From NCBI RefSeq assembly GCF_051903065.1, contig NZ_CP178438.1: a stretch of DNA of 64,000 nucleotides; one strand, written 5' to 3'. The translations under genes and the position numbers were made by a program. Under the pieces are notes generated by a model. The model worked only from the letters and a program-made list of their open reading frames with translations. It did no database searches and was not told the origin of the DNA. Positions 30,522 to 32,250 of the stretch are shown in pieces; position 1 is the first letter of the stretch; each line of letters opens with the position of its first letter. Source of the stretch: Escherichia coli (GTDB lineage: Bacteria > Pseudomonadota > Gammaproteobacteria > Enterobacterales > Enterobacteriaceae).

Positions 30522-31225
30522 GCCGGAAATCTTACCCCAACGTAAATGCTGCCAATCAGTATGCCCGGGATGTCGTGCGCGGAAAGATTGTGGCCTGCCA
30601 GTTTGTGATTCAGGCCTGCCAGCGCCATCTTGATGACCTGATGGCGGAAAAAAGTAAGTCGTTTCGTTACCGCTTCGACAAGGACCTGGCTGAACGGGCC
30701 GCCAAATTTATTCAGCTGTTGCCGCACACCAAGGGTGAGTGGGCATTCAAGAGGATGCCCATCACGCTGGAGCCGTGGCAGCTCTTTGTGATCTGCTGCG
30801 CGTTTGGCTGGGTCAATAAAGGCTCCCGGCTGCGCCGCTTCCGTGAGGTGTATACCGAAATCCCCCGTAAGAACGGCAAATCGGCAATCTCTGCCGGTGT
30901 CGCCCTGTATTGTTTTGCCTGTGATAACGAGTTTGGCGCGGAAGTGTATTCCGGTGCCACGACAGAGAAACAGGCGTGGGAAGTCTTTCGCCCGGCGCGA
31001 CTGATGTGTAAACGCACACCCATGCTGACGGAAGCGTTCGGGATTGAGGTTAACGCCTCAAACATGAACCGTCCGGAGGATGGCGCGCGGTTTGAACCGC
31101 TGATCGGTAACCCCGGTGATGGATCATCACCCCACTGTGCGGTGGTGGATGAATATCACGAGCACGCCACCGATGCGCTTTACACCACGATGCTTACCGG
31201 GATGGGGCGCGACGTCAGCCACTGA
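30518..31225 (+). CDS. terminase large subunit, N-terminal fragment (ATPase), ends at a frameshift
   Basis: Walker B-like VVDEYHEH; reading frame terminates after ...[10 protein letters not shown]. Confidence 0.85.
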
Positions 31226-32250
31226 TGTGGGCCATTACTACTGCCGGGTACAACATTGAGGGGCCGTGCTACGACAAGCGGCGGGAAGTCATCGAGATGC
31301 TCAACGGCTCGGTGCCCAACGATGAACTGTTCGGGATCATCTATACCGTTGATGAAGGTGACGACTGGACCGACCCGCAGGTGCTGGAAAAAGCCAATCC
31401 AAATATTGGCGTGTCGGTTTATCGCGAATTTTTGTTAAGTCAGCAGCAGCGTGCGAAAAATAACGCCCGTCTGGCAAACGTCTTTAAAACAAAACACCTC
31501 AATATCTGGGTGTCGGCGCGTTCGGCGTATTTCAACCTGGTGAGCTGGCAGAGCTGCGAGGATAAATCACTGACCCTTGAGCAGTTCGAGGGGCAGCCGT
31601 GCATTCTGGCCTTTGACCTGGCGCGTAAGCTGGATATGAACAGCATGGCGCGACTTTATACCCGCGAGATTGACGGTAAAACGCATTACTACAGTGTGGC
31701 CCCGCGTTTCTGGGTACCGTATGACACGGTGTACAGCGTCGAGAAAAATGAAGATCGACGGACAGCCGAACGCTTTCAGAAATGGGTGGAAATGGGCGTT
31801 CTGACCGTTACCGATGGTGCAGAGGTGGATTATCGCTACATCCTCGAAGAGGCCAAAGCGGCGAACAAAATCAGCCCGGTCAGTGAGTCACCCATCGACC
31901 CTTTCGGAGCGACCGGGCTCTCACATGACCTTGCTGATGAAGACCTGAACCCCATCACTATCATTCAGAACTACACCAACATGTCCGACCCGATGAAAGA
32001 GCTGGAAGCGGCAATTGAATCGGGGCGCTTTCATCATGATGGCAATCCCATCATGACCTGGTGTATCGGCAACGTGGTCGGCAAAACCATTCCGGGTAAC
32101 GATGATGTGGTGAAGCCCGTCAAAGAGCAGGCGGAAAACAAAATCGATGGTGCAGTTGCGCTGATTATGGCGGTTGGCAGAGCCATGCTGTACGAGAAAG
32201 AAGACACGCTGTCTGACCACATTGAGTCCTACGGGATCCGCTCGCTTTAA
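31225..32250 (+). CDS. terminase large subunit, C-terminal fragment (nuclease)
   Basis: The frame upstream of its ATG reads ...[19 protein letters not shown], continuous with the N-fragment if one G is restored in a G-run near 31205. Confidence 0.85.

Follow-up and report, generated by a model that had tools for sequence, protein, structure and literature searches.

A prophage packaging module in Escherichia coli carries two adjacent ORFs of 235 and 341 aa where a single gene for the terminase large subunit (TerL) would be expected. The split, found in a 64-kb stretch of DNA (hereafter the window), raises the question of whether the gene has been lost, whether the assembled record is in error, or whether the two parts form a functional arrangement. 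The initial annotation had offered two readings, a prophage unable to package its DNA and a sequencing error in a homopolymer, and these are still the only two serious explanations.

One TerL gene in two reading frames

The two ORFs are the halves of one TerL gene of 577 aa, separated by a G5-to-G4 contraction (Table 1). When the frames are joined, both halves show 100% protein identity to the intact 577-aa WP_000088150.1, in agreement with the earlier proposal that they are one terminase, continuous once a single G is restored. Alignment to intact terminases, a check suggested at that stage, was carried out at the DNA level, and the single gap relative to E. coli 23CRST027, SfII, and SfV falls precisely in the G-run (4 G vs. 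5 G); ST64B reads GGGCG at the equivalent codons, with the frame kept. This gap bears out the G-run as the site of the lesion, although the coordinates first given for it (~31201–31207) lie slightly too far left, the run being at 31204–31207. All full-length E. coli matches among those listed are 1,734 nt long vs. the 1,733-nt query, and 1,114 records have at least 80% query coverage. The relatives listed are annotated with one terminase large subunit gene, whereas the window encodes no single polypeptide of ~577 aa combining ATPase and nuclease. The ORF pair is one gene rather than a chance neighborhood, and as written the window gene is a frameshifted copy of an HK97-type TerL family member.

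In the frame of the upstream ORF (ORF1), the codons across the run read GGG ATG GGG CGC GAC GTC AGC CAC TGA, the G-run being made up of the G of ATG and the GGG codon that follows. The frame breaks after G230, and ORF1 ends in a five-residue out-of-frame tail, RDVSH. The +1 frame leading into the downstream ORF (ORF2) reads GARRQPLMW; residues 231–236 (ARRQPL) are missing from both products, and ORF2 starts at the native Met237 of TerL. The TGA stop of ORF1 (31223–31225) and the ATG of ORF2 (31225–31227) overlap by one base in the sequence TGATG (31223–31227). This overlap is accidental, since the intact gene has CTG ATG (Leu236–Met237) at this place.

Table 1. Coordinates of the terminase gene halves, the neighboring packaging genes, and the prophage boundaries in the window.
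Feature	Position	Strand	Remarks
tRNA-Thr (CGU)	12904–12979	+	Beside proA; left attachment site; integrase gene directly to the right
HNH endonuclease, packaging module	29551–29901	+	PF01844; position as HK97 gp74
TerS, P27-family, 164 aa	30027–30521	+	TIGR01558, 77 bits; sister-genome annotation; stop overlaps TerL start
TerL 5′ half, 235 aa	30518–31225	+	ORF1; N-terminal region and ATPase core; Pfam TerL_ATPase matches the 235-aa product
G4 run	31204–31207	+	Contraction site; G5 in all relatives aligned
TerL 3′ half, 341 aa	31225–32250	+	ORF2; rest of ATPase and RNase-H-like nuclease; Pfam TerL_nuclease matches the 341-aa product
Portal protein, 413 aa, intact	32444–33685	+	Followed by HK97-family prohead protease and major capsid protein
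IS1, right prophage boundary	53351–54118	−	No 9-bp target duplication; followed by betA

Domain assignments of the repaired protein upheld its identification as a large terminase. PF03354 (TerL_ATPase) covers residues 86–256 (E = 5.5e-26), and PF20441 (TerL_nuclease) covers residues 268–558 (E = 7.5e-34), the latter lying within ORF2; neither half has an NCBIfam match. HK97 TerL (PDB 6Z6D) is the sole solved homologue found by sequence, with residues 112–556 aligning (E = 4.7e-25). In this alignment K121 corresponds to K60, D211/E212 to D153/E154, and T242 to the C-motif T186; in HK97 TerL, the K60A and E154A substitutions each eliminate packaging (PMC9410871). The HK97 enzyme has the same layout of an ASCE ATPase followed by an RNase-H-like nuclease, and the HNH gene upstream in the window resembles its partner gp74, the role of which is described in the same study (PMC9410871). 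However, HK97 TerL is a distant homologue only, and in the window the polypeptide is interrupted.

Within the protein, the interruption falls in the ATPase domain, after Walker B and before the C-motif. Walker A (RKNGKS, residues 117–122) and Walker B (VVDEYHE, residues 209–215) are both encoded by ORF1, and the C-motif/sensor I residue T242 is encoded by ORF2. Since Walker A and B are thereby cut off from the C-motif, the remaining ATPase, and the nuclease, packaging would be lost; taken literally, neither product would be a whole ATPase, and DNA packaging would be abolished. In a protein comparison with WP_000088150.1, neither half shows secondary decay.

The prophage and its right end

The gene order of the packaging module is HNH endonuclease, P27-family TerS, TerL, YmfR, portal, prohead protease, and capsid, with Mu-like tail genes after it, so that the split gene has TerS upstream and portal, protease, and capsid genes downstream. 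Every head and tail gene is kept in the prophage, and the other structural genes are intact. The names ymfL, ymfQ, ymfR, and pinE appear among the annotated prophage genes, and a scan of 28–56 kb returned no Rfam family. By gene content and position, the element can be classed as an SfV/SfII-like myovirus prophage at the tRNA-Thr next to proA. Its TerL gene shows gene-wide DNA identity of 96.8–98.3% to those of the SfV-group temperate myoviruses (SfV orf2, SfII_02, SfI, SfIV, and vB_EcoM-689R6), and the SfII and SfV records have the TerS–TerL–portal part of the module order in common with the window. The SfV-group genes, like WP_000088150.1, consist of a single 577-codon ORF with G5, in contrast to the G4 and two ORFs of the window. 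Sf phages also integrate at thrW.

Several accessory features of the prophage were recorded alongside. A minus-strand gene pair (24527–26729) between the Q antiterminator and the lysis cassette encodes a hypothetical protein (392–395 aa) and an NA37/NdpA-like nucleoid-associated protein (344 aa); the pair looks like a moron, and PADLOC returned nothing for it. A Pin-invertible tail-fibre segment (47392–49312) with inverted crossover sites of ~20 nt precedes pinE (49338–49928); its orientation in E. coli 23CRST027 is opposite to that in the window, and in 23CRST031 the same. A small defence island (49986–53306) at the right end of the prophage carries a minus-strand PD-T4-3 GIY-YIG protein gene (49986–50810; PADLOC, 464 bits), and then a retron Ec67-type RT-Toprim gene, type I-C (51471–53306), followed by IS1. 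No msr/msd RNA of the retron was found at the Rfam gathering threshold. A 28-nt direct repeat (49936–49963 and 50956–50983, 89% identical) flanks the PD-T4-3 gene.

The tRNA 3′ end occurs only once in the 64-kb window, leaving no attR, and no target-site duplication was found around the IS1, the left flank being aaaatttct and the right flank cccttttcg. The lack of a second tRNA 3′ end together with an IS1 without target duplication indicates that attR has been lost, most simply by an IS1-associated deletion. The distance from IS1 to betA is ~265 bp. On the K-12 map, ~30 kb separate betA from the thrW prophage site; the absence of this segment here suggests an IS1-mediated deletion.

The initial annotation had linked a packaging defect to truncation of the prophage by IS1. 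The truncation itself stands, given the missing attR and target duplication, but its tie to the frameshift is circumstantial: the genomes of 23CRST027 and 23CRST031 show the same right-end truncation, yet their TerL is intact. The IS1 event is thus older than, and independent of, the frameshift.

The four-G state in relatives and in other prophages

A 66-nt query across the junction matched 1,378 complete E. coli genomes at 1,496 places; none had the exact 4-G sequence, and the best match, at 98.5%, differed by one gap. Exact-pattern scans of IMG/VR gave 0 contigs with 4 G vs. at least 120 with 5 G, and the 4-G allele was not found among GTDB species-representative genomes.

The closest relatives, 23CRST027 and 23CRST031, are near-clonal with the window, and both have 5 G. 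Over 64 kb, the substitutions relative to these sisters are one at 41005 (both sisters) and one more in 23CRST031; the remaining differences are the orientation of the Pin tail-fibre segment and several one-base homopolymer indels. The C of the window at 41005 is also that of 158 other records at ≥99% identity, indicating that the T of the sisters is the derived state. With no private substitution and a derived T at 41005, the G contraction is the sole private difference of the window in 64 kb. Four further assemblies (GCA_037286885.1, GCA_025818475.1, GCA_002941455.1, and Logan SRR21142187) carry the haplotype of the window with zero substitutions over up to 8.6 kb. They agree with the window at every base but the G-run, which has 5 G in 4 of 4, and no independent assembly with 4 G on this haplotype was found. 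None of the 270 other homopolymer runs of ≥5 bases in the window deviates from the lineage. In one of the four assemblies, GCA_002941455.1, contig PTNB01000052.1 ends 9 nt past the G-run and lacks 78 nt (window 30675–30752) of the TerL 5′ region; this gap is likely a graph break or a collapse of the two related TerL copies of that genome, and not biology.

The sister records themselves contain homopolymer differences. Compared with the window, single bases are missing from 3 and 7 homopolymers in RefSeq NZ_AP045789.1 and NZ_AP045800.1, at window-equivalent positions 17096, 21882, 21951, 30473, 35557, 46568, and 53618. The window run is longer at all seven of these other length differences, and where PGAP flags a sister gene as frameshifted, the longer run restores the frame. 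The flagged genes are TerS, RusA, and a LexA-like gene (23CRST031 only), IS1 InsAB (23CRST027), and YmfQ and a hypothetical gene (both). At 30473 the draft assemblies side with the window. The deletions private to one sister genome look like assembly noise.

Outside this lineage, the same deletion does occur. An exact product look-up placed the 235-aa and 341-aa products side by side in >20 contigs from unrelated projects, and all of those contigs that were compared by DNA keep 4 G. They span at least 8 different haplotypes with 20–47 silent differences within the gene, and their flanks are likewise 1–3% divergent from the window. The haplotypes include metaSPAdes/MEGAHIT-style and Logan k-mer assemblies, which are probably Illumina-based. 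The contigs represent different prophages, and the deletion has most likely arisen repeatedly. Because each is a different prophage, 1–3% divergent across gene and flanks, we rejected the split contigs as proof of the frameshift in the window. Spread of one old frameshift allele by recombination is unlikely, as five distinct local haplotypes were distinguished within 40 nt of the G-run, with the nearest variant at 29 nt. The halves were found on 11 and 21 contigs vs. at least 1,000 for the intact protein, placing the 4-G state at 1–2% of copies at most.

As a control, ±1 indels were simulated in the remaining homopolymer runs of the repaired TerL gene and the predicted products were looked up. 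The 161-aa products of a C5 deletion form a 29-member cluster whose listed members sum to >40 contigs (one variant on 17 contigs), and they occur on many haplotypes. An indel in the A6 run yields a 46-aa stub and a 498-aa restart product; the A6 insertion product was present on 7 contigs and its restart partner on 12. Products of a C5 insertion and of an A5 deletion were each found. Several further simulated products were not found in this look-up, which under-counts the other sites, since, where the out-of-frame tail is long, the product depends on silent variants. The recurrent indels at C5, A6, and A5 led us to reject the G-run as a unique hotspot; the G5 deletion is one among several recurrent homopolymer indels, reflecting generic instability in a very abundant gene. 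In E. coli, indel rates climb exponentially with homopolymer length, and recurrent indels have been observed at a 5-G:C run (PMC8510543); this dependence on run length accords with the several recurrent homopolymer indels in TerL. Other TerL homopolymer frameshifts are present in public assemblies, e.g., GCA_025818475.1 and GCA_033408395.1, and in ERZ27258088 a separate loss of 1 nt, near 31141, leads the frame to the same stop codon.

The recurrence of the 4-G allele on several haplotypes would also be compatible with a functional arrangement, in which a low-level −1 tRNA-Gly slip yields a share of complete TerL, or the two products assemble into a split terminase, the G-run acting as a reversible packaging switch. 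A −1 P-site slip on the G-run (A-UGG-GGC, with GGG re-pairing with GGG and the next codon, GCG, restoring …GMGARRQPL…) would regenerate the wild-type protein exactly, and the TGATG overlap offers a possible means of translational coupling to ORF2. We nevertheless regard such an arrangement as extremely improbable. The 4-G configuration is unconserved, being absent from the E. coli places and IMG/VR contigs scanned and from every same-lineage assembly, and it makes up no more than the small fraction of copies of the exact protein given above. The canonical X XXY YYZ heptamer is absent, ORF2 has no preceding Shine–Dalgarno sequence, and the 83 nt downstream of the run fold at −21.2 kcal/mol vs. 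a shuffle mean of −25.5 (z = +1.34), no better than shuffled sequences. A programmed frameshift or split terminase was therefore rejected for want of conservation, slippery heptamer, and downstream structure, and a split enzyme is further opposed by the position of the break within the ATPase core, with loss of conserved residues. For a switch, the comparable recurrent indels at other TerL homopolymers are unfavorable, and a tract of 5 G is short for phase variation; the OFF allele reaches 1–2% at most, and 0% in complete E. coli genomes and IMG/VR. It is likewise very doubtful that the G5 run is a recurrent, reversible soft spot that repeatedly disables packaging in SfV-like prophages, with packaging perhaps regained through slippage or a −1 tRNA-Gly slip; were this true, hosts would gain a fast way to disarm a prophage while leaving it repairable.

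Consensus error or replication slippage

We somewhat favor a homopolymer consensus error as the explanation for the split gene. The record would then carry 4 Gs where the TerL gene has 5, the missing G being a consensus under-call of the homopolymer in a long-read-based assembly, and TerL of the strain itself would be intact. The single gene, the precise site of the lesion, the private nature of the change, and the pristine state of the rest of the gene are demonstrated; from these we infer that the loss of the G is technical and not biological. An artefact is favored because the contraction is the sole private difference in 64 kb, private substitutions are nil, and six assemblies of the same lineage have 5 G.

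The lesion has the form that a consensus error would take, a 1-nt homopolymer deletion in one assembly only that is contradicted by same-haplotype assemblies, although a further private indel, which would also point to such errors, is not present in the 64 kb. In long-read assemblies, 1-nt homopolymer deletions are the dominant error class and peak after runs of 4–5 bases (PMC12007338). Homopolymer indel errors fragment genes in long-read bacterial assemblies, as in the Kastor study (PMC12007338), and the lesion in the window resembles them: one base is gone from a run of five, a conserved gene is interrupted in one assembly only, and close references contradict it. Compared with this class of long-read homopolymer errors, the window has 1 event in 64 kb, vs. 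3 and 7 in the RefSeq sister assemblies. The prophage module is present twice in the sister genomes, which hold a second related TerL, and the span of the window across IS1 and the doubled module indicates that long reads were used. IS1 and the doubled module may resist short-read polishing.

A real and very recent loss of one G by replication slippage, fixed after the split from the near-clonal relatives, is a serious possibility that we place at rather less than an even chance. TerL would then be a pseudogene, with any translation of ORF2 depending on reinitiation at the UGAUG overlap, and the prophage, already immobile without attR, would now also be packaging-incompetent. Elsewhere in its 64 kb no error was detectable in the window, its other homopolymer runs and the four draft assemblies being in agreement, which speaks for a real change. 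So do the exponential dependence of E. coli indel rates on homopolymer length, with indels known at a 5-G:C run (PMC8510543), and the identical deletion on at least 8 independent haplotypes, with comparable indels at C5, A6, and A5. The missing attR and the IS1 without target duplication imply that selection on TerL is probably relaxed, making a real frameshift tolerable. However, zero private substitutions in 64 kb leave very little time for a real indel, the change is absent from 6 of 6 same-lineage assemblies, no second assembly has 4 G on this haplotype, and neither half has begun to decay. Our weighting of error against slippage assumes that real indels are ~1/10 as frequent as substitutions, of which none is private here, and that ~0.06–0.6 residual errors remain per 64 kb in a good long-read or hybrid assembly. 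Either way, the split is neither a programmed nor a conserved feature.

Pseudogenised packaging genes of cryptic prophages are exemplified by the e14 ymfN and beeE remnants in E. coli K-12. As in cryptic prophages, an attachment site has been lost in the window and the prophage immobilised, leaving morphogenesis genes free to decay. Unlike those remnants, the lesion in the window consists of one base, with no further decay and with the other structural genes intact.

The split TerL belongs to a well-known gene family, and its frameshift, one base in a homopolymer, is of an ordinary kind that involves no new mechanism. Its biological weight is small, and the lesson is methodological: a single-base homopolymer frameshift seen in one assembly of an otherwise identical lineage needs confirmation from reads before the prophage is called defective on its account. 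In the RefSeq sister genomes, other genes of the prophage present the same annotation problem. An artefactual deletion would be a nuisance for annotation, creating a false pseudogene in a gene essential for assessing prophage intactness. If the deletion is real, TerL would be one more prophage gene lost through homopolymer slippage, in an element whose attR was already gone.
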